Below, piece after piece: positions 27,389-39,557 of a stretch of DNA of 64,000 bases. The stretch is from Candidatus Kapaibacterium sp. (lineage in GTDB: Bacteria > Bacteroidota > Ignavibacteria > Kapaibacteriales > UBA2268). The position numbers and the translations under genes are program-made. Each line of letters begins with the position of its first letter. The first letter of the stretch is position 1. The notes beneath the pieces were generated by a model. That model worked only from the letters and a program-made list of their open reading frames with translations, did no database searches and had not been told where the DNA came from. Location of the stretch: NCBI GenBank assembly GCA_963664875.1, contig OY761611.1, positions 2,176,001 to 2,240,000 of the forward strand, given 5' to 3'.

Positions 27389-28708
27389 ATGAAAAAGTTG
27401 CTCATTGTTTTAACTATACTCGCATCTATTGCCCATTCCACCGCAGGTGAAATGAAGTTTTTGTGGTCAGAGGCATTGAATGAAGGGTATGTTTCTGATA
27501 TTGAATTTATGCCTGATAATGATTATTGTGTTATTGCAAGATACAATGTTCTCGAAATACGGGAAGTTCTTACAGGACAAGTAGTCTTGAGTAGAGAAGA
27601 AAATTTAACAGATATAGAATTTTCTGCTGACAGCACAAAAATGATTACAAGAAAGAATACAATCCTTGAAATACGTGATATTGAAACATTAGAAGTGGTA
27701 CAAATCAAAGAAATGCCAACTGAAGATGGTGATTATCATTTGTTTTATGGTCAAATGCAAATAGATCCGATTAGACCACTATTGTACTTACGAATAGAAT
27801 ACATAATAAATCAGCCTGATAAAGAAGAAAGTAAATCTAAGATAGTTATTTACAACTCAGAAACATTAGAATATGTAGGTGAGCTTACAGATGAAAGTCA
27901 TTTTGATTTGTGGTTGATAAATCTTGCTGTTTCGTATGATGGTAAATACCTCGCTTCCATCAGCGAAGGCAAATCAAAACTCTTAGTTTGGGATTTAGAA
28001 ACAAGAGAGCAGATAGTTGACCACTATATGGCACCTCACACTTCTAACGAATTTGGCGACCCTGGCGATTTGAAATTTTCAGAAGTGAACTTGGATAATA
28101 TTTATATAACAGGTAGGTTTCGACATTTTGCAAGTGATAAAGATCATCAAGGATTATCGGTTTACAATGTTTTTGAGAATAAAATTGTTGATGAAAGATT
28201 TAATGTAGAAGGGAATCAGATTGCAACAGCTCGGATATCATTTGTTAAAAATGAAGAATATATTTTATCAACCCACTCTTATACATCAGAAATTCTAAAT
28301 TTAATGAATGGTAGAATTGAATATACTATCGAAAATCACTATTCATATGCTTGGGGAGGATGCCAGAGAATATCACAAAAAACAAAAAAAATTATTGGCT
28401 ATATGTATAAAAGTTTCTCCGCAGGCTACTACGATTTCGATACATCTATAGAAGAAGAAAATAAAAACAAAATAATATACCCAAATCCAACTACCAGCAA
28501 AGTAACAATACCAGTTATCTGCGAAACAAGTGAACCAAGTTTATCAGTTTTTGATTCGAACGGTAAGGATGTTACAGCACAAATTGAATGGGATTACAAC
28601 GGTGAAGATATTACTGTTGATTTAAGTCATATTAGTGTAGGAATCTATATCGTTAGAGCTGCTTGTGGTACTACTGTTGCGGATTATAAAGTTGTCAAGG
28701 AGAATTAG
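27389..28708 (+). CDS. Beta-propeller T9SS protein, paralogue 4 (chimera of paralogues 1 and 3)
   Basis: N-half nearly identical to paralogue 1; 28112-28428 identical to 26791-27107 of paralogue 3. Confidence 0.85.
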   Translation: MKKLLIVLTILASIAHSTAGEMKFLWSEALNEGYVSDIEFMPDNDYCVIARYNVLEIREVLTGQVVLSREENLTDIEFSADSTKMITRKNTILEIRDIETLEVVQIKEMPTEDGDYHLFYGQMQIDPIRPLLYLRIEYIINQPDKEESKSKIVIYNSETLEYVGELTDESHFDLWLINLAVSYDGKYLASISEGKSKLLVWDLETREQIVDHYMAPHTSNEFGDPGDLKFSEVNLDNIYITGRFRHFASDKDHQGLSVYNVFENKIVDERFNVEGNQIATARISFVKNEEYILSTHSYTSEILNLMNGRIEYTIENHYSYAWGGCQRISQKTKKIIGYMYKSFSAGYYDFDTSIEEENKNKIIYPNPTTSKVTIPVICETSEPSLSVFDSNGKDVTAQIEWDYNGEDITVDLSHISVGIYIVRAACGTTVADYKVVKEN

Positions 28709-28709
28709 A

Positions 28710-30032
28710 ATGAAAAAGTTGCTCATTGTTTTAACTATACTCGCATCTATTGCCCATTCCACCGCAGGTGAAATGAAGTTTTTATGGTCACAAAGTTTCC
28801 AAGACGGCTATCTTTGGGATATAGAATTTATGCCTGATAACGATTACTTTGTTTTAGGGTATGACGATAGAATTGAACTAAGAGAGACAGATACAGGAAA
28901 TTTAGTTAAAGTAGATAGCATTATTGCAAGAGATATTGAAGTGTCTTCAGATAGTACTAAGCTTTATATAAATTGCATCAACTCTTTCCAAGTGAGAGAT
29001 GTTAATACGTTCGAAGTCTTACAATCTGTAACTTTACCTGATACTATAGATGGATATCGTGCTTATTATTCAGACTTTTGTGCTGATCCTGCAAGAGCAC
29101 TAATATACCTGAGAAGAGCTTTGCAATATGATGAAGACAATAACGGCAATGCTTTGCTATGGCAATACATTTGTGTTTATAATTCTGAAACTTTGGAGTT
29201 TATCACAGAGCTAAGCTCGGAAGCTCATAAAATGATGAATTTTACTAAAATGGATGTCTCTGCTGATGGAAAATATTTGGCAGCAATCAATAGCGGAAAA
29301 TCCAAGCTAATGGTATGGAATTTAGAAACAAGAGAGCAGATTATTAATCATTATATGGCTCCTGAAACATCTACTGAGTATGGCGATCCTAAAGATTTGA
29401 AGTTTTCAAATGTAAACACTGATAATATTTATATATCAGGTTCTTTTAGACATTTTGAGAATGATAAAGACCATATGAGCTTGTCTGTCATTAATATTGA
29501 GAAAGAAGAAGTTATTGATGATAGATTTAATGTTGGACAAAATCAGTTTGGAGCTACAAGACTAACATTTATAGATAATGAAAAGTATGTATTGGCATCA
29601 TCATCTAATCTTACAATTATGATTGATTATTTAGATGGGACTATTTTATATAAAGCAATTCATCATAGAGATTATAATTGGGGAAGAAATAGATTTAGTA
29701 AAGATAAAAACGTTATTATTGGTCACGGTGGAAATTCGTTTTCATCAGGCTACTACGACTTTGAATCTTCCATAGAAGATCCAAATAATGATGAAGTTAT
29801 TTACCCCAACCCTACTACAAACGAAGTAAATATTCCATTTTCTTGTACTTCACCAGAATTTACAATTTCCATGTTTGACTATAATGGTAATGATTTAACT
29901 ACTCAGATTCAGTGGCAGTACACAGGTGAAATGTACACTATTGATTTAAGTAATATAACAGCAGGGGTTTATGTTGTAAGAATTAATTGTGGTGAATCTT
30001 CTTCTGATTATCGAGTAGTGAGGGAGAAATAA
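28710..30032 (+). CDS. Beta-propeller T9SS protein, paralogue 5 (most divergent)
   Basis: N-terminus like paralogues 2/3; divergent C-half and CTD (YRVVREK). Confidence 0.85.
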   Translation: MKKLLIVLTILASIAHSTAGEMKFLWSQSFQDGYLWDIEFMPDNDYFVLGYDDRIELRETDTGNLVKVDSIIARDIEVSSDSTKLYINCINSFQVRDVNTFEVLQSVTLPDTIDGYRAYYSDFCADPARALIYLRRALQYDEDNNGNALLWQYICVYNSETLEFITELSSEAHKMMNFTKMDVSADGKYLAAINSGKSKLMVWNLETREQIINHYMAPETSTEYGDPKDLKFSNVNTDNIYISGSFRHFENDKDHMSLSVINIEKEEVIDDRFNVGQNQFGATRLTFIDNEKYVLASSSNLTIMIDYLDGTILYKAIHHRDYNWGRNRFSKDKNVIIGHGGNSFSSGYYDFESSIEDPNNDEVIYPNPTTNEVNIPFSCTSPEFTISMFDYNGNDLTTQIQWQYTGEMYTIDLSNITAGVYVVRINCGESSSDYRVVREK

Positions 30033-31902: not shown

Positions 31903-31929
31903 AAAAAAAGGGGCTAATGCCCCTTTTTT
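31903..31929. terminator. Bidirectional terminator between murF and vWA-OmpA gene
   Basis: A-tract GGGGC-TAAT-GCCCC T-tract between convergent genes. Confidence 0.85.
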
Positions 31930-33256
31930 ATTTAGATATTATTATTATCTCGGTTCGTCGATTTAATTTTCTTCCAAATTGAGTGAGATTACTTGCAATC
32001 GGTCTTCGCTCACCTTGACCTATCGTTTTGATTCTGTTTTCTGCTACTCCCCTATCTACTATGTATTGCTTGACGCTTTCAGCTCTTTTTTTAGAGAGAT
32101 AGTCATTTACTGCGTCCGGGCCAACTGAATCAGTGTGACCTTCGACTACAATAGCAATGTTCTGTTTGTCTCTCATAAACTTTGCCATAATGTCAAGTTC
32201 AGGTACATTATTAGGAAGTGATGCATCATTTGTTTCGTATAGCAAGTTTTCAATTATAAGCTTTCTTCCGAGCTCTACTATAGGGATTTTTCTTTTCACT
32301 AATTTCTGAGTTTTTTCATCATATAGTGCTATCTCTATTTCATCAGGAATTGCGTCCTGATCTGAGCGATAGTACATAGCAAAAAGATTTGTCAACTGTG
32401 TAGAGAAATTATTCAAAATAAAAGAAAAATCTGATTCAATGTCATAAGCCGAGCCACGGGTAGATCTTGCCATCGAAGCATACTGTTTGAATTTGGGCGG
32501 AACAATCGGAAATATCCTGATGTTTTTTGTCATAAACAAGTCAACTATTGACTCAGTTGTCTGATTAGTTACACCATTGCCCGGCACATTTTTCTGATGG
32601 TAAGAAGCATCAGTAATCAGTACAGTAACTTTGTCTGCGAAATCTCTGTATTTGATTTTTGCAGCAGCTTCAAGTGCTTCGAGAGCGTTTTCTGGTTCGT
32701 CTCCACCGCCTTTTGTTTTTACTTCCGAAAGCCATTGCTGGAATTTCGTTACATCTGTAATAGGCTGGTAAACCATTTCTAAATCGTCTGAAAAAAGTAC
32801 TAGACCAAGTCTGTAATCGATACCTTTAAGGTTTAATACCTCAGTAAATTTTACGATATTAGCTTTGAGCATATCGATTTTATTTTGCATTGAACCGGTA
32901 ATGTCCAAAACAAAAACGAAGTCAACAGGCACAACCTCAGCCGCAGGGATTTTTTCGACTCTAAGTACTTTTTTTTGTTTCCCGTCTTCATAAACGTAAA
33001 GGTTATCAGCAGAAAGCTCTTCTAAAGGTTCGCCTTCTTTGTTGTAAGCCTCAATGATTATTTTAATTTCGGGAAACTTAGTGATATCAACGTTTCTAGC
33101 TGTAATTTCAATTTCGTCTTCGGTATAGGAAAGCTTAGCACCTTCCAATACTTTTCTTTTTTGCTCTAATGTGTCTATTTTGCTGACTAATGCTGCATTC
33201 AAAAAAGGGGGGGATACTATCAGCAGTAGGCATAATAAGTACAATATGCGATTCAT
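31928..33256 (-). CDS. vWA domain + OmpA-like peptidoglycan-binding domain protein
   Basis: Signal peptide; FVLDITGSM MIDAS, GGGDEPENALEAL, LITDA; C-terminal EGHTD, LSKKRAESVK and NRRTE. Confidence 0.9.
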   Translation of the reverse strand: MNRILYLLCLLLIVSPPFLNAALVSKIDTLEQKRKVLEGAKLSYTEDEIEITARNVDITKFPEIKIIIEAYNKEGEPLEELSADNLYVYEDGKQKKVLRVEKIPAAEVVPVDFVFVLDITGSMQNKIDMLKANIVKFTEVLNLKGIDYRLGLVLFSDDLEMVYQPITDVTKFQQWLSEVKTKGGGDEPENALEALEAAAKIKYRDFADKVTVLITDASYHQKNVPGNGVTNQTTESIVDLFMTKNIRIFPIVPPKFKQYASMARSTRGSAYDIESDFSFILNNFSTQLTNLFAMYYRSDQDAIPDEIEIALYDEKTQKLVKRKIPIVELGRKLIIENLLYETNDASLPNNVPELDIMAKFMRDKQNIAIVVEGHTDSVGPDAVNDYLSKKRAESVKQYIVDRGVAENRIKTIGQGERRPIASNLTQFGRKLNRRTEIIIISK

Positions 33257-33305: not shown

Positions 33306-33350
33306 AATGCCCCCTGCTCTTTCTAATCGAAAAAACTAACGGGGGCATTA
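33306..33350. terminator. Stem-loop between barrel gene and vWA-OmpA gene
   Basis: TAATGCCCCC...GGGGGCATTA 10-bp inverted repeat, T-rich tail on minus strand. Confidence 0.6.
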
Positions 33351-33366
33351 TAACTTTATATTTTTA

Positions 33367-34866
33367 TTATATAGTAAGTCTAAGAACAGGCGAAATCATG
33401 AAGAAGTTACCAACTTCATAAGGGCGTTTGTCGCGCAATACTGTAGAGTATTTACCTTCGAGGTAGAACCAGTTGCCAAACAACGGTAGATAGATTCTTG
33501 CCATCAATACCTGATTAGCTAACTGCACGCTTGCACCAAACGGATAAGCTGCCTGATTTCTATATTCAACTTTAGCAAACATCCAATCACCAAATGATTC
33601 CGGTTTATAGAATTTAAGACCATCTACTTCATTTGTTGTGATGAAGTAGTTAGAAGATTTTTCAGATTGGTCATATTGTTTGTAAAGTCCGTATTCTTGT
33701 ACTTCATTGTAGCTAAGACCTAAGTCAAATCTAAAGTAGTTTTCAGGATCTTTGGGATCCAACCACCAGTGGTAAAAAGCAGAAATTCTACCTGCAGTAC
33801 CTAAGATAGGAGCTACAGCCATAATTTCTTCCTGAGTACCAGAATTTGGTGAAAAAGCTACATTATTGGTGTTAGCAAGAAAACCGAATGAAGTTACATC
33901 AATTTGTTCTGTAGTAATTTTCGATACAGGGAATTGGAAATCAGCTGCCAAACCTGCTTCAGGATGAAACGGCATGTGGAAATCCATACCAAGAACGATT
34001 TTACCTTTAGGTTCAGCATTTAATATTCTTTTCTGCATCCAGTCAACCACACCACTTGTTCCGCCGGCATCTTTTGCATCTGTAACTTGTTCAGGAATCA
34101 AATCTCTATTGATACCTGTAGAAATTTTATATGCACCACCAAGATAAGCGTTGATAAGGTAAGGCACTTTGTCAGTAGTTCTTTCATCTGTGTTTACATA
34201 AAGAGGTCTCTGCAAAGTAATGCTTCCCTGGCCTGCTTGCCAGAAATGGTAACCAATATCATCAATACCGATTTTTGAACGCAACCAGAAGCCTGTTTTA
34301 CCGATTTTAATAGCCTGCTCAAACATAGACAAAGTAAATGCATGAGTAACGTTAGAAGGCTGTAAATAATCAATAATAGCAGTTGTCTGCGAGTTAGTTA
34401 ACGGAATTTCCTGTGGAATTTCGTTAAAGCAATAATCACGAGTAGCTATGTCAGATCTGACACCGCGATCCTGACCATTGTAAACCAATTCGCCGGAAAG
34501 GAATCCGACTAAGATTTCAGTTAGCTGAACATCTATATCATAAGCAGACATAGACTCTTTACCGCAACTGATAGTAATGATTTCGAAAGGTTCGTCATCA
34601 AAAGATCTCGGTGCGGCAAGGATTTCAACGTTGTTCATATCCAAATTTTCTTTTGGAAACTGAGCATTTACGAATGATCTATAAATTTGGAACTGTAAGT
34701 CTCTTTCACATACTTTCCATCTTGGGAAGTATCCCTTGATTTCTGAGTCAATAGTAGTAAGAGAATCTATGATTGCTCTTTTGTCCGGTATCATTGTCTG
34801 AGCATCAGATTTATAATATCCGAAAACAAACGCAAGTACTAACAAGAATAAGATATTTCTTTTCAT
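33367..34866 (-). CDS. Hypothetical outer-membrane beta-barrel protein B
   Basis: Signal peptide, amphipathic strands, C-terminal ISPVLRLTI; paralogous to 34911-36644. Confidence 0.65.
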   Translation of the reverse strand: MKRNILFLLVLAFVFGYYKSDAQTMIPDKRAIIDSLTTIDSEIKGYFPRWKVCERDLQFQIYRSFVNAQFPKENLDMNNVEILAAPRSFDDEPFEIITISCGKESMSAYDIDVQLTEILVGFLSGELVYNGQDRGVRSDIATRDYCFNEIPQEIPLTNSQTTAIIDYLQPSNVTHAFTLSMFEQAIKIGKTGFWLRSKIGIDDIGYHFWQAGQGSITLQRPLYVNTDERTTDKVPYLINAYLGGAYKISTGINRDLIPEQVTDAKDAGGTSGVVDWMQKRILNAEPKGKIVLGMDFHMPFHPEAGLAADFQFPVSKITTEQIDVTSFGFLANTNNVAFSPNSGTQEEIMAVAPILGTAGRISAFYHWWLDPKDPENYFRFDLGLSYNEVQEYGLYKQYDQSEKSSNYFITTNEVDGLKFYKPESFGDWMFAKVEYRNQAAYPFGASVQLANQVLMARIYLPLFGNWFYLEGKYSTVLRDKRPYEVGNFFMISPVLRLTI

Positions 34867-34910
34867 GTGATTTCTTCTTTATTTCTTTGACTAATTCAAC
34901 AACCATTTAA

Positions 34911-36644
34911 TTAAAATACAAAGATAAATCGAGCCATAGGGATAAATAGATTTTCTTCTACTTCCCAAGCTTGAGGTGTATCTTTCAACGCTGTAAAGAA
35001 TGATTTGCCTTCTAATCTAAGAGCGAACAAATCTTTGATTACCGGGATGTGAATCCAAGCACTTGCATATATTGATTCATCAAAGTATTGCACTGATACG
35101 CCATAAGGAGTAGCAATATTTTTAACCATGAAGTCCATTTTTGCAGAGATGCCGCCGATTGTTTCTTTGTCTAACTCTTTATAAACAGCTGTTTCTATGT
35201 TAGTTTCAGGATCGGCTTCCATTCTGTCTCCCCATGTTTCTATAGTATAGACAGTACCGCCCAAACCAAATCTCAAGTGATAATCTTTATCGATAGCTAA
35301 ACCAAATGTATAATGCAATGTAGCATTTGCTCTAACTAAATAGTCGTTTCCGGATTCGTCTTCCGGATTGATAGTCAAAATCTGATCTAAGTCAATTTTA
35401 TCTTTGTATCCTGCTCTTTCTGCATCGCCAAACACCCAGCCAAAACCTAAGTGGAACACACCACTTTGAGGAATAACTTTGAATGGAAAGTCTAATTGAC
35501 CTGCGATACCAAGACCACCATGTGTAAATACTCTATCGTATTCCAACATTTCTTTGCCTAATTCTGACCAGCCGTAAGTTGGAAGAATAGCACCGATTTT
35601 AATATTTTCCCATAATGCAGAGAAAGTCATCCTTTCGCTCCACATAGAAGGCATATTGATATCGTCGATACCGTATTTCAATTCAAGACCGAATTTTGGC
35701 AAGCTACTGTTTGTAATAAAAGAAAGTGTATCTACAAAACCGTCTTCATAAGTATATGTTTCGATTTCGTAGCGTTTCCAGCTAACTAAATCAGGAGAAA
35801 CTATGATTTCGTGGTTTTGAGTATAGTCCATTGGTTCTGCATTAGAGATTCTAACAAATTTTTGAACATCTGCAGAAGAAATATCGCCTTCTCTTTCTAT
35901 CAAAGAGCGGGAAACACCATACTGAGGGTCAGTCCATTTTTTCATGGTACCGATACCTTGAGCTTCGCTTGTTCTTTTTTCTACGTTAGACTGCATAAAT
36001 GCATTTTCTAAAAGCTGATACATGTTTTCAGCATTGTATTTTTCAGGATCCAAATCAAACTGAACAAGTTCAGGCCAAGTAAAAACGTTTTTGCCTGAAG
36101 CATTATCAACATTTTTGCCAATATCAGTGTTGTCTTCATAAGAAATTATCATAGCGATAATAGTATTCGGAACAACCTGATCTCTGTCGGCTTTTTTAGT
36201 AGTTACGATATAAGCTTCTCTCACTACTTGTTGAGAGCCCTTGTTAGGGCTCAGGATTTCAACAAGTGCGTCAAAGTTTTTAGGTAATTCGCCGTAACGA
36301 CCAATCAACTCTCTTTGGATTTTAGTTTTAGTAGAACCTGATAGCAACTGGTTTCTAATTGAAGAAACAACCTGTGGATCAGTTTCAGCTAAAATTTTAT
36401 CTGCATCACCTACTGCAGCAGTAGTGTTTTCTGATGCTTCTTTATCTTTAATTATCTGTCTTACGTCTCTTACATCTTTCAAAGAATATAAGTCAACTGT
36501 AGAAAAGCGATAGTTTTTATATCTGTTAAGAATACTTTCAAGTTTAACCCTGAACGATTCGTCACCTTGTGCCTGCACAGTCAAAGGCATAACTATGCTT
36601 AGCATAAGAAGGCTTAACAACAAACTGGATGCTTTCTTCATCAT
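34911..36644 (-). CDS. Hypothetical outer-membrane beta-barrel protein A
   Basis: Signal peptide from MMKKASS, N-terminal soluble region, amphipathic strands, terminal PMARFIFVF beta-signal. Confidence 0.7.
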   Translation of the reverse strand: MMKKASSLLLSLLMLSIVMPLTVQAQGDESFRVKLESILNRYKNYRFSTVDLYSLKDVRDVRQIIKDKEASENTTAAVGDADKILAETDPQVVSSIRNQLLSGSTKTKIQRELIGRYGELPKNFDALVEILSPNKGSQQVVREAYIVTTKKADRDQVVPNTIIAMIISYEDNTDIGKNVDNASGKNVFTWPELVQFDLDPEKYNAENMYQLLENAFMQSNVEKRTSEAQGIGTMKKWTDPQYGVSRSLIEREGDISSADVQKFVRISNAEPMDYTQNHEIIVSPDLVSWKRYEIETYTYEDGFVDTLSFITNSSLPKFGLELKYGIDDINMPSMWSERMTFSALWENIKIGAILPTYGWSELGKEMLEYDRVFTHGGLGIAGQLDFPFKVIPQSGVFHLGFGWVFGDAERAGYKDKIDLDQILTINPEDESGNDYLVRANATLHYTFGLAIDKDYHLRFGLGGTVYTIETWGDRMEADPETNIETAVYKELDKETIGGISAKMDFMVKNIATPYGVSVQYFDESIYASAWIHIPVIKDLFALRLEGKSFFTALKDTPQAWEVEENLFIPMARFIFVF

Positions 36645-36723
36645 ATTTATTTGCCCTTGCAATTAAATTACTTACTAATTTTTTTAAAACTAATGATTAT
36701 AACAAATCTACTATACTAACTGT

Positions 36724-39021
36724 TTATCTTCTTCTTCTGCCACCTTGTGCAGCCCCGCCTCTAGAGTCAGGTTCGAAGTCAATCCTTACAGGAACTATTG
36801 TCTGGTTAGGATCAGCAGCAACACCGTTGATTGCGTTGACAGCAGTAGCTCTAAGTTGTACGTTTACAGTTCCACGAACTTTTTTCTCGCCGGCAGGCAA
36901 TTTACCTGACAATTCGAATTCCATTTCGTAAACTCCGTCACCTGTTTTGTCAACTGTAGGTTCTACAGCAACGCTATAGCCTGATAAGCCTTCAGCAATT
37001 TCAGTGTTTAATACGTTAACCTGAACATTTGCGTTAGTACCTTTTTTATCACCACTTGTAGGTGAAGTAACAGTTAGACCGGTAACGCGTACTTTAACTT
37101 TGCTTGAAGTACCGGAACATTCAGTAACAACATTAGTATTGATACTTGCTTCTTCCTGTTTCAAAGCAATTGTTTTCTGAGGATAAATATCAACCATTCT
37201 TCCTGTGTGCGGTTGTTCCCAAGCAACTCTGAATTTCACTTCCTTAGCATCAGGAGTATATTCAATGTTATCATTAAGAGTAACTGCCAATCCGGAAATA
37301 ACTGTTGGTTGAGATTGTGCGTCAGTAGAAACATAGATTTTGAACTCTTCAGGTTTAATAGCACCCTGAGAAGCAGGTTCTACGTTTACAATCATTTTCC
37401 AGCCATAGTAAGTCATGAAATCAAGCTTTTGAGCAACGTCTTTCATAGAGCCCGGAGTCAAGCCTGTTTTGTAAACATTAAGTGCAACATTTGTTTCAGC
37501 AGTTTTGTTTGAACCACTAATTGAATGAGTAAGCTTAATTGTGTATGATCCCTCAGGTAGTTTCTTATTCAAAGTACCTTGGTATCTACGTTCACCACCT
37601 TTTATAGGTTCAGCATTTCTGGAAGCCATATCGTTTACAGGAGCGTAATTAACAGAAGCAACCTGAGCACCGTTTTCATCAACTACATAACCAGAAACTC
37701 TATTGCCGTCGCCTTGATAAGGTGCTATACCAAACATAAACACAGGCTCTACAGCATCGAAGCAGCTAAGTTTGTTAGCAACATTGATAATAGGATCTGC
37801 CATAGGTGGTTTAGGTTTAATCACACGAATGTCAAATTCGATATAACCTTTGTTCTGGTCGAAGTGAACAGACATACCCGGAGCAATAAGTTTAGCTATA
37901 TATCCATAAAGCTTGATTTTAGATTGAATATCATTTGCTTCGCTTTCTGTAGATGCTTTATCGGCAGCAGCACGAAGACCTGCGTCAAATTTTTCTAAGT
38001 CAGCTTCTTTTGTAAGGATTTCAACATCCGGCAATTCATATTTTTCAAGTTCTGATTTCAAAGATTTATGCACTTTACGCAATTCCTTTACGCTAAGCTG
38101 AACTGTACCAATATTTACAGTCGCATCGTCATCCAACTCTTTGCCTTGATATTCACCACGAATACCAAGAATTTTGTTAGTTTTTGATGCAAATCTTAGT
38201 TTGTACCAGCCTTCTCTGTCAGGAGGTTGGAATTGAACTACGAAAGCACGTTTGTTTTTTTCTTTACCTTGCAATGAGTTTACACTCAAATCATGGTTGT
38301 AATAAAATACACTATCGGCACTCACATCTTTTGGTTGGAAAGTAGGGCCGACTTGAATTTCAGTTTCTTTAGGATAAACAGGTCTGAAATCATCAGGACT
38401 GATGTTAGACATATCAAGCTGATTGAAAGTAGCTTCATTGTCCATATCCAATTTTCTGAGAGACAAAAATTCCCACTGAGTGCCATCTGCAGCAGTAACT
38501 TTCTGACCTTCAGTAAAGTCATCGAAACCTGTGATTCCCTGAGCTAACAAATCTTTGTCAGAAGGGAATGATGGAGTAACACCCGGAGTGTTATCGGTAT
38601 TATAAAACACCTGATACTCTAACTCTTCAACGTTAGAAAGTTTTACCAAAGTTTTTATTCTTTGGAAATATTCTTTCTCGGATTCACCCTCTTTTCTTTT
38701 GACAGAAGCAGAAACGTCAGTAACACCAACCTCAACGATATATTTACGCCAAGATTTAATGTCTGTTCCTAATACCTCTTTGATATTAACTCCTGCTGGT
38801 GGGATGGTTATCTCATCCTGTGGGCGCGTGTTGATACCTTCGGTACCTGCACCTGATTGAAGCTGAGAAAGGATGGACTGCACGATACGCATAGTTTCTT
38901 TTTGCTTAAGGTGCAAACCTTCTTCTGCCTCATCACGCTCCACGATGATGATAAGCAATTCCAATACCACGGCTAAGTACAATACGAAATATACTTTACC
39001 TGCACCGCCTGATCTTAACAT
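36724..39021 (-). CDS. Single-TM-anchored periplasmic protein, possible divergent GldM/PorM-like protein
   Basis: GGAGG SD; MLRSGGAGK-VYFVLYLAVVLELLIIIV TM, helical stalk, then ~700 aa beta-rich region; GldM likeness is inference only. Confidence 0.5.
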   Translation of the reverse strand: MLRSGGAGKVYFVLYLAVVLELLIIIVERDEAEEGLHLKQKETMRIVQSILSQLQSGAGTEGINTRPQDEITIPPAGVNIKEVLGTDIKSWRKYIVEVGVTDVSASVKRKEGESEKEYFQRIKTLVKLSNVEELEYQVFYNTDNTPGVTPSFPSDKDLLAQGITGFDDFTEGQKVTAADGTQWEFLSLRKLDMDNEATFNQLDMSNISPDDFRPVYPKETEIQVGPTFQPKDVSADSVFYYNHDLSVNSLQGKEKNKRAFVVQFQPPDREGWYKLRFASKTNKILGIRGEYQGKELDDDATVNIGTVQLSVKELRKVHKSLKSELEKYELPDVEILTKEADLEKFDAGLRAAADKASTESEANDIQSKIKLYGYIAKLIAPGMSVHFDQNKGYIEFDIRVIKPKPPMADPIINVANKLSCFDAVEPVFMFGIAPYQGDGNRVSGYVVDENGAQVASVNYAPVNDMASRNAEPIKGGERRYQGTLNKKLPEGSYTIKLTHSISGSNKTAETNVALNVYKTGLTPGSMKDVAQKLDFMTYYGWKMIVNVEPASQGAIKPEEFKIYVSTDAQSQPTVISGLAVTLNDNIEYTPDAKEVKFRVAWEQPHTGRMVDIYPQKTIALKQEEASINTNVVTECSGTSSKVKVRVTGLTVTSPTSGDKKGTNANVQVNVLNTEIAEGLSGYSVAVEPTVDKTGDGVYEMEFELSGKLPAGEKKVRGTVNVQLRATAVNAINGVAADPNQTIVPVRIDFEPDSRGGAAQGGRRRR

Positions 39022-39557
39022 AACAAATTACCTCCACATGGTGCTTGTTTTATTAAACTAAAATTTTTTCTTCTGTCTTAGAAAATTGAGTGTAGCCTTT
39101 TTGCAACTTGATGTGTATCTAATATATAAAGTAACAATCATTGGCTCGACTGTTTACCAATACTTAACACGAAAATCTCAATTTTGGCAAAACGCCTTAC
39201 AAATTATCTTAAATATAGCATTTATACAAGCAATTTTTGTTAATAATCCAAAATAATAAAAAATTGCATATAATAAGACTATTTCTAATTACCATGCTTC
39301 AATAATTTTTTAATACAAATCAACAAATATGAAGCAAAGTACTCAGCAAGCCAATATACAACTATATTATTCGGAAAAAAATACTATTTTGCTTTAGCTA
39401 TAAATCTAAAGGACATTTGAGTTTTTTAAAAACGAGGTAGAAAAAATTTCATCGGCGTCCGTGGTTTGTTTTTTATATGGGTTATTCGTCAGAAGACTAA
39501 TTATAATAAAATACGCATTTTTCAAATTAAATCACAATTATTTTTTTAACAGTCTAT

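Follow-up and report, generated by a model that had tools for sequence, protein, structure and literature searches.

Our analysis of a 64,000-nucleotide window of a Candidatus Kapaibacterium sp. genome (contig OY761611.1, positions 2,176,001 to 2,240,000), which is part of a complete 3.83-Mb single-contig genome, has shown that four co-oriented genes on its minus strand, P0001 to P0004, make up a real, strictly conserved, undescribed and probably envelope-spanning module. The four proteins probably form a new trans-envelope bridge that matches no described machine, and this bridge is possibly motor-driven. An initial annotation had placed a candidate trans-envelope machine here, composed of three co-oriented genes for a GldM-like membrane protein and two barrels. 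The three genes lie where it put them. It overlooked a fourth co-oriented gene, P0004, whose product has a signal peptide, a VWA domain and an OmpA_C domain.

Homologues demonstrate that these are real genes and not chance open reading frames (ORFs). At E<=0.001, they numbered 622 among 8000 candidates scored for P0001 and 376 among 6003 scored for P0003, and the named sources were proteins from Kapabacteria, Ignavibacteria or Bacteroidota metagenome-assembled genomes, all annotated as 'hypothetical'. The gene order is kept as well. Of 13 loci taken from the same order and one sister family, 12 had all four genes colinear and the remaining one was cut by a contig end; P0004 adjoined the other three in 12/16 related loci with room to see. 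An anchor protein and two P0003-like barrels were found without P0004 in family f47 (3/3 loci) and at a second f9 locus; the conserved core is therefore the triad of P0001, P0002 and P0003, which was kept in every relative with room to see. P0001-type proteins with barrels were seen only in families f1-f4, f9 and f47.

Searches of Pfam and NCBIfam returned no family match for P0001, P0002 or P0003. P0001 starts with a short Gly/Lys tail, followed by one hydrophobic helix that carries Tyr11, Tyr15 and Glu21 and then by ERDEAEE, much as the initial annotation had read it. Conservation of the membrane Glu and Tyr was borne out by an alignment of 52 homologues (25-82% identical to P0001), in which Y11, F12, L14, Y15, L16, A17, E21, L22, L23, I25 and I26 were invariant, as were V27, E28, R29, D30, A32 and E33, and G5-K9 were at least 90% conserved. 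The most conserved part of P0001, residues 4-75, also occurs in differently built proteins of 200-650 aa, and periplasmic proteins that are otherwise unrelated share the same 54-column anchor (hhalign 99%, E 2.4e-18). When compared with 1.84 billion representative proteins, P0001 gave 146 matches at E<=0.001. Because two positive residues precede the helix and the acidic ERDEAEE follows it, the charge distribution predicts a bitopic inner-membrane protein with a cytoplasmic N-terminus. The membrane Glu is about two thirds along the helix towards its periplasmic end, and with this topology Glu21 would therefore be in the outer half of the membrane.

An AlphaFold2 model of P0001 (predicted local distance difference test, pLDDT, 85.4) consists of a helix (7-57), a mixed alpha/beta region (68-310), helices (311-386) and beta-sandwich domains (393-750). 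The helical stalk followed by ~700 residues of beta-rich sequence that had been proposed is roughly right. Foldseek and VIA-align searches, which used the whole 765-aa model and barely covered residues 60-400, listed generic tandem Ig/FN3 chains only (Z 8-10, over residues 405-750). An ESM Atlas search was uninformative, with a best score of 0.77. The modelled protein is elongated, and its immunoglobulin-like (Ig-like) domains in series are plausibly long enough to span the periplasm from the inner-membrane anchor, as had been suggested. Comparison of the anchor profile with PDB profiles produced only coiled-coil noise.

P0003 has a signal peptide, and its AlphaFold2 model (pLDDT 83.5) combines a small alpha/beta domain, predicted to be periplasmic (about 40-150), with a beta-barrel (163-499). 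VIA-align matched it to the FadL homologue 3dwo (Z 13.1, 255 aligned, root-mean-square deviation 4.5), TodX (Z 12.4), FadL (Z 12.0), the type IX translocon protein PorV (6h3i_F; Z 12.0, 217 aligned, root-mean-square deviation 4.3) and accessory chains of Bacteroidota BAM complexes (Z 11.3-11.4), while Foldseek returned porins, AlgE and FapF. The top matches are tied, FadL-type transporters scoring as high as PorV. Based on the modelled fold alone, which does not imply descent, residues 163-499 are predicted to be an outer-membrane beta-barrel of the FadL/PorV type. P0002 has a signal peptide, a periplasmic N-terminal part and a C-terminal barrel part with an aromatic end (last residues FIFVF), and its family aligned with that of P0003 over the last 134 profile columns (hhalign 98%, E 2.7e-13). 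Judged from this homology, the C-terminal part of P0002 is a predicted outer-membrane barrel and a paralogue of P0003 over the barrel part. Both barrels of the initial annotation were thus recovered, one by model and the other by homology. Signal-peptide cleavage, judged by eye, would follow VQA in P0002 (probable) and SDA in P0003, leaving Gln at +1 in both; this fits the 'Q-rule' for +1 of cleaved signal peptides in Bacteroidetes, as described in PMC5837995.

P0004 begins with a signal peptide that lacks a lipobox, followed by an N-terminal domain; its VWA domain at residues 112-273 contains a metal-site-like DxTxS motif, and residues 340-432 form a peptidoglycan-binding OmpA_C domain. The Pfam matches were OmpA (2.7e-19, 69.8 bits, cut-off 27.2), VWA_4 (1.2e-14, 54.7 bits, cut-off 27) and VWA_2 (2.9e-10, 41.2 bits, cut-off 27). 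A Zorya-type defence role was considered and discarded, as the ZorB/MotB resemblance reported by PADLOC is generic and confined to the OmpA_C part.

In sister lineages the anchor of P0001 adjoins a second conserved protein with two membrane helices, hereafter the module protein. Two distant class genomes of other families (L042 and L043) have an operon that opens with such a protein (172-181 aa), continues with a 204-208-aa protein bearing the P0001 anchor and goes on with signal-peptide proteins, one of which has a C-terminal motif like that of P0003; none of these operon proteins had a Pfam family. In families f46, f48, f49, f54 and f56, a module protein of 235-336 aa is encoded directly upstream of an anchor protein of ~490-560 aa. 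This direct order of module then anchor was seen at 11 fetched loci (L064-L073 and L075) besides L042/L043, and at L063 (f46) and L074 (f51) another ORF lies between the two genes. Among 30 aligned modules, G31, L35, G40, R42, E62 and L66 were invariant, R42 at the end of helix 1 and E62 in helix 2. Searches of NCBIfam and Pfam returned nothing for the module proteins. Laid out in full, L042 (1-8640) and L043 (1-8040) hold the module protein, the short anchor protein, a 365-380-aa exported protein and then two further exported proteins (about 510 and about 466 aa) that occur as a pair twice in tandem.

The module also tracks the anchor from genome to genome. In one sample of 101 class genomes, used for all queries, the anchor profile was found in 49 and the A448 protein, a module protein of the present genome, in the identical 49. 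The two vary together even within families f6 (2/3), f8 (1/8) and f49 (1/2). Since related genomes are not independent, this co-occurrence is suggestive and does not amount to a statistical test. Three module proteins (A448, B341 and C283) are encoded in this genome, none of them near the operon and all mutually unlinked. All 10 sampled genomes of f47 have exactly one module match and one anchor match, never adjacent (58-320 kb apart on one contig in three genomes, on separate contigs in the other seven), and a single clade (support 85/96) unites the A448-type modules from f1-f4, f9 and f47. By elimination, A448 is the best candidate partner of P0001 in this genome. Within the order, the sole conserved neighbour of the A448 gene is a divergently transcribed 446-aa gene of unassigned family with no evident envelope link.

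Beside A448, two further module genes deserve description. In the stretch C1:2999389-3001804 (L061), the gene next downstream of B341 encodes a SpoIIE/PP2C-type phosphatase (Pfam 2.1e-41), a neighbour that hints at regulation by phosphorylation. C283 and C490, the latter a 490-aa related anchor protein without the buried Glu, form a second gene pair laid out like GldL/GldM (C1:909624-911947; L062:3625-5948, minus strand), flanked by an LptF/G-type permease gene on one side and a TolC/HlyD/MacB-type efflux cluster on the other. The C490-type anchor protein was considered as a universal motor of the class and set aside, being present in only 20/101 class genomes (f1-f4, f9).

Based upon these observations, the mechanism with the best support is a shaft coupled to an ion-conducting partner that resembles GldL; we put it forward tentatively and as something short of likely. 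In this mechanism, a lineage-specific four-protein complex would bridge the whole cell envelope. Gene structure, conservation, synteny, folds and co-occurrence are shown by the analysis, and we infer from them how the proteins touch, how they are coupled to ions and what the output is. P0001 would be the inner-membrane-anchored shaft, with a stalk that probably dimerises and an Ig-like rod that would reach the outer membrane, where P0002 and P0003 would form a paralogous pair of FadL/PorV-like barrels with periplasmic N-terminal domains. P0004 would tie the assembly to peptidoglycan through OmpA_C and offer its VWA metal-site domain to a protein ligand. The polar helix of P0001 (Lys9, Tyr11, Tyr15, Glu21, ERDE) would most likely dock into an ion-conducting ring, formed by the separately encoded two-helix module with its invariant Arg ending helix 1 and invariant Glu in helix 2; ring and shaft would then be arranged as in the GldL/GldM (5:2) proton motor. 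Rotation or bending of the shaft, driven by ions passing through the ring, would perform work on the two outer-membrane barrels, and the most likely output is that surface or secreted material is moved or released. The idea of an energy transducer is supported indirectly, because a GldL-like module co-occurs with the anchor and adjoins it in sister lineages.

Several observations weigh against this mechanism. Membership of P0001 in the GldM/PorM family, as the initial annotation had suggested, was not supported, because both profile values obtained lie below acceptance; a very distant relationship is conceivable. Compared with a profile of 16 real GldM proteins, the P0001 profile reached a probability of 6.7% over an Ig-like stretch, with the N-termini not aligned, and the profile of a 535-aa sister family reached 29.6% (E 5.7e-4) over 91 columns of one Ig-like domain. 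GldM hidden Markov models (HMMs; Pfam GldM_1st PF12081 and NCBIfam TIGR03517) matched 0/52 members of the P0001 family and nothing in the whole genome. The GldM family was likewise absent from the 25 most-matched Pfam families (E<=1) for the 52 P0001 homologues and from the families listed for 12 members of the sister family, and GldM/PorM was not among the matches listed by Foldseek and VIA-align, where residues 60-400 of the model were barely covered. As for the partner, hhalign places the module helices on the two GldL helices, Glu on Glu, a placement in favour of the mechanism, though at a probability of 1% (P 0.052), which is not significant. The GldL HMM TIGR03513 gave best genome matches of E 0.08-0.77, none of them at A448, B341 or C283, and the module profile met nothing relevant among PDB profiles, only coiled-coil noise. 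The genome has three module proteins for two anchors (P0001 and C490). No module gene lies beside the operon in this genome or in any of the 12 relatives inspected (12/12), so the pairing of A448 with P0001 rests on co-occurrence among non-independent genomes. B341 groups with the L042/L043-type modules, whose operons carry barrel pairs (support 91/89, long branches), and the partner of P0001 could be B341 instead of A448. A complex prediction with four A448 modules and two P0001 anchors, made without controls and not at the natural 5:2, scored 0.01 (mark 0.32), which speaks neither for nor against the mechanism. On the supporting side, metatranscriptome contigs from two studies cover parts of genes 1-3, where DNA carry-over is possible. 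One 528-nt contig, with 2 mismatches, spans 38548-39075, crossing the P0001 start and reaching 54 nt upstream. These contigs are a weak sign of expression of genes 1-3; no contig from the RNA libraries aligned to P0004, which proves nothing.

With these points in mind, the four proteins may instead be a passive tether of the OmpA/Pal type that would hold both membranes and the cell wall together, the helix serving for oligomerisation or membrane insertion only. The OmpA_C domain of P0004 and the Ig-like rod of P0001 suit a tether, a stator-like gene was present in or beside the operon in 0/12 relatives inspected, and a sequence-level link to any motor family was not found. However, a mere anchor helix would not be expected to stay near-invariant in proteins that are otherwise 25-50% identical, nor would unrelated periplasmic proteins be expected to share it, and the anchor tracks a Glu-bearing two-helix module genome by genome and sits in the same operons with it in sister lineages. 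We consider the tether unlikely.

A second alternative concerns type IX secretion, the presence of which in Ignavibacteriae is suggested by BLAST according to PMC5837995. P0001 and the module could be the missing motor and shaft of the type IX secretion/gliding system of this lineage, replacing GldM and GldL, with the barrels of PorV/PorP type and P0004 of PorE type. The genome does encode SprA (786 bits), PorV and PorU, and many of its proteins bear C-terminal domain (CTD) tails, in agreement with the CTD-rich cargo reported in the initial annotation, and the tied best fold matches of P0003 include PorV. Canonical gldL, gldM and gldN were not found in the complete genome, and gldK gave only weak, partial matches below cut-off (C1:2883592 and C1:1270816); these proved to be FGE-sulfatase-type lipoproteins without L/M/N-like neighbours. 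The wider genome survey that the initial annotation had called for thus recovered SprA, PorU, PorV and three MotA/ExbB-family genes, the last all away from the operon, and left the Gld part unfilled. The GldM HMM itself works, as it matched 62/251 genomes of the phylum used as a control, yet GldM_1st exceeded its cut-off in 0/101 class genomes. Literature on type IX secretion in Ignavibacteria/Kapabacteria or on GldL, bioRxiv supplements falling outside its scope, yielded neither the module nor a GldLM-like motor.

Against such a role, SprA_N was found in 101/101 class genomes, whereas anchor and module were each found in 49/101. With SprA in every genome of the class and the anchor in only some of them, the present evidence shows no link between the operon and type IX secretion and gives no ground for assigning it there. 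P0001-type proteins are accompanied by barrels in the few families named above only, the operon is about 67 kb from sprA (C1:2282358-2288867) and about 1.5 Mb from porV-porU (C1:3725439-3729973), FadL-type transporters match P0003 as well as PorV does, and the second anchor/module pair, C490/C283, is an equally good candidate. A type IX motor is thus a decidedly unlikely identity for these proteins.

Least probable is a TonB-like energised uptake, in which FadL-type barrels importing hydrophobic or bulky substrates would be powered, by way of P0001, from a stator in the inner membrane: the best fold matches of P0003 are indeed of the FadL family (3dwo, TodX and FadL), and the barrels are encoded beside P0001, which is predicted to be bitopic and to span the periplasm and whose polar helix is conserved, but TonB_C, ExbD and ExbB domains were not found in the operon with Pfam or NCBIfam, the three MotA/ExbB-family genes of the genome are elsewhere, the VWA-OmpA protein has no place in such a model and FadL-type barrels are not known to need energy.

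The coordinates of all features are collected below. With the P0002 start taken at the first ATG, 36644, the gaps between the four genes are 79, 44 and 110 bp, the first two in keeping with the short gaps (about 80 and 44 bp) described in the initial annotation; the listed ORF of P0002 (34911-36662) begins upstream of this likely start, at a TTG at 36662. The strong Shine-Dalgarno sequence and the upstream region of more than 500 bp that it described are also present. GGAGG (39031-39035) stands 9 nt ahead of the P0001 ATG, and the leader contains no ORF of at least 60 aa. A sigma-70 promoter scan of the leader performed no better than on shuffles. The inverted repeat between P0003 and P0004 is not followed by a T-run, and a terminator scan, overall no better than shuffles, did not flag it. 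It may be an attenuator or a processing site, and with this repeat in the gap P0004 may be regulated or transcribed apart from genes 1-3.

Coordinates of the operon genes, the non-coding elements and the module genes (positions in the window, or on C1 where marked)
Feature	Position	Strand	Description
P0001 (gene 1)	36724-39021	-	ORF of 765 aa
P0002 (gene 2)	34911-36644	-	577 aa from first ATG at 36644
P0003 (gene 3)	33367-34866	-	ORF of 499 aa
P0004 (gene 4)	31928-33256	-	ORF of 442 aa
AT-rich non-coding leader/promoter region	39022-39557	-	536 bp, GC about 0.31-0.34
GC-rich inverted repeat	33306-33349	-	9-bp arms AATGCCCCC / GGGGGCATT, 26-nt loop; in the 110-bp gap between P0003 and P0004
A448	C1:1141337-1142683		module protein of 448 aa, this genome
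B341	C1:3000779-3001804		module protein of 341 aa, this genome; next to SpoIIE-type phosphatase gene
C283	C1:911096-911947		module protein, this genome; C490 directly after

The flanking genes are unrelated to the operon. On the P0004 side they are murF and then a CTD-bearing beta-propeller gene, and on the P0001 side, on the opposite strand, an HD-domain gene and trkA/trkH. The beta-propeller gene (28665-30032, plus strand), two genes past P0004 with murF between, encodes 455 aa; the product is WD40/beta-propeller-like and bears a type IX sorting tail of type A (Por_Secre_tail, 4.7e-12). In families f2-f4, a small exported Cys/Ser/Ala-rich protein (about 90-160 aa) adjoins the operon upstream of the P0001 orthologue in 7/8 loci (L032-L038 and L040; on the opposite strand in L033). 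It is absent from the window, and in f3/f4 it is preceded by a ribonucleotide-reductase-like gene.

Few trans-envelope motors have been described, namely the flagellar stators, Tol, TonB, GldLM and Agl, and each opened a field. The present module has the hallmarks of such a motor, i.e., a constrained polar helix, a co-occurring partner with a buried Glu, a rod able to span the periplasm, dedicated barrels and a cell-wall anchor, and three of its four operon proteins, as well as the partner, match no described family. All 101 class genomes have the SprA translocon and none has a recognisable GldM, which makes the power source of type IX secretion in this class an open puzzle. We can speculate, as a rather unlikely idea, that the anchor helix and the A448-type module are an unrecognised branch of ion-driven 5:2-type motors, diversified in Kapabacteria/Ignavibacteria into several machines, one of which drives PorV/FadL-like barrels and could power secretion or surface motility. 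Such a branch would offer a possible power source to a lineage with a type IX pore and without recognisable GldLM. The analysis also yields testable pairs, P0001 with A448 or with B341, in which the key residues would be Glu21 and the helix-2 Glu of the module.

Among known systems, the closest comparison is with GldL and GldM, for which 16 gldL-gldM loci of other Bacteroidota served as positive controls. Like GldM, P0001 is predicted to be bitopic: its cytoplasmic tail is very short, its single helix is strongly conserved, and its periplasmic part is elongated and contains Ig-like domains. This resemblance is architectural and not a demonstrable homology. The anchor motifs differ, the 16 GldM proteins having invariant R9, Q10, M12, I13, M16 and Y17 where P0001 has K9, Y11, Y15, E21 and ERDEAEE, and the shaft itself carries a buried Glu in P0001, unlike in GldM. 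The periplasmic part of GldM consists of a helical D1 and three beta-sandwich domains; in the P0001 model, Ig-like domains occupy residues 393-750. Like GldL, the module crosses the membrane with two helices, the second of which carries an invariant Glu (E62, n=30), and it has a cytoplasmic tail; in GldL, E47 was invariant in 15 aligned sequences. According to PMC8986121, the GldLM motor depends on GldL E49, an essential residue that can be protonated, and contacts between the GldL and GldM helices are treated there as well. The order of partner then shaft in sister lineages is also that of gldL-gldM, and the hosts belong to the same phylum, this genome having SprA, PorV and PorU. In contrast to GldLM, the partner gene is unlinked in this genome. 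Whereas gldM directly follows gldL in gldKLMN, the upstream neighbour of P0001 is an HD-domain gene on the other strand, and the ring genes GldK and GldN are absent from the operon, which has two barrels and a VWA-OmpA gene instead. The initial annotation had already remarked that gldK, gldL and gldN are not adjacent; on the points that it had singled out, the membrane Glu is conserved, the modelled P0001 is elongated, the genes are syntenic elsewhere and a canonical gldKLMN operon was not found in the genome.

As in Tol-Pal and TonB-ExbBD, where energy comes from a separately encoded stator, the module combines an inner-membrane-anchored, periplasm-spanning protein with outer-membrane partners and a Pal-like OmpA_C binder. 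Unlike in those systems, TolA, TonB, ExbD and TolR domains were not found in the operon, the rod of P0001 is made of predicted Ig-like domains rather than a long helix or a Pro-rich stretch, and the barrels are FadL/PorV-like and not the 22-strand TonB-dependent receptors. P0001 had no Pfam or NCBIfam match to ExbD/TolR/MotB, whose essential Asp is near the cytoplasmic end of the helix, whereas P0001 has a Glu towards the other end. The gliding machinery Agl-Glt of Myxococcus has a TolQR-type motor, periplasm-spanning inner-membrane proteins, the paralogous barrels GltA/GltB and the VWA protein CglB. It is likened to the present module by description and not by sequence, it belongs to a different phylum, and the VWA protein P0004 has OmpA_C and a plain signal peptide. 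Lastly, residues 163-499 of P0003 share the fold of the 14-stranded FadL, TodX and PorV (Z 12.0-13.1, 217-255 aligned). Unlike these, P0003 has no sequence-family match, about 110 aa of it make up an additional periplasmic alpha/beta domain, and the barrels form a conserved paralogous pair behind a shaft gene.

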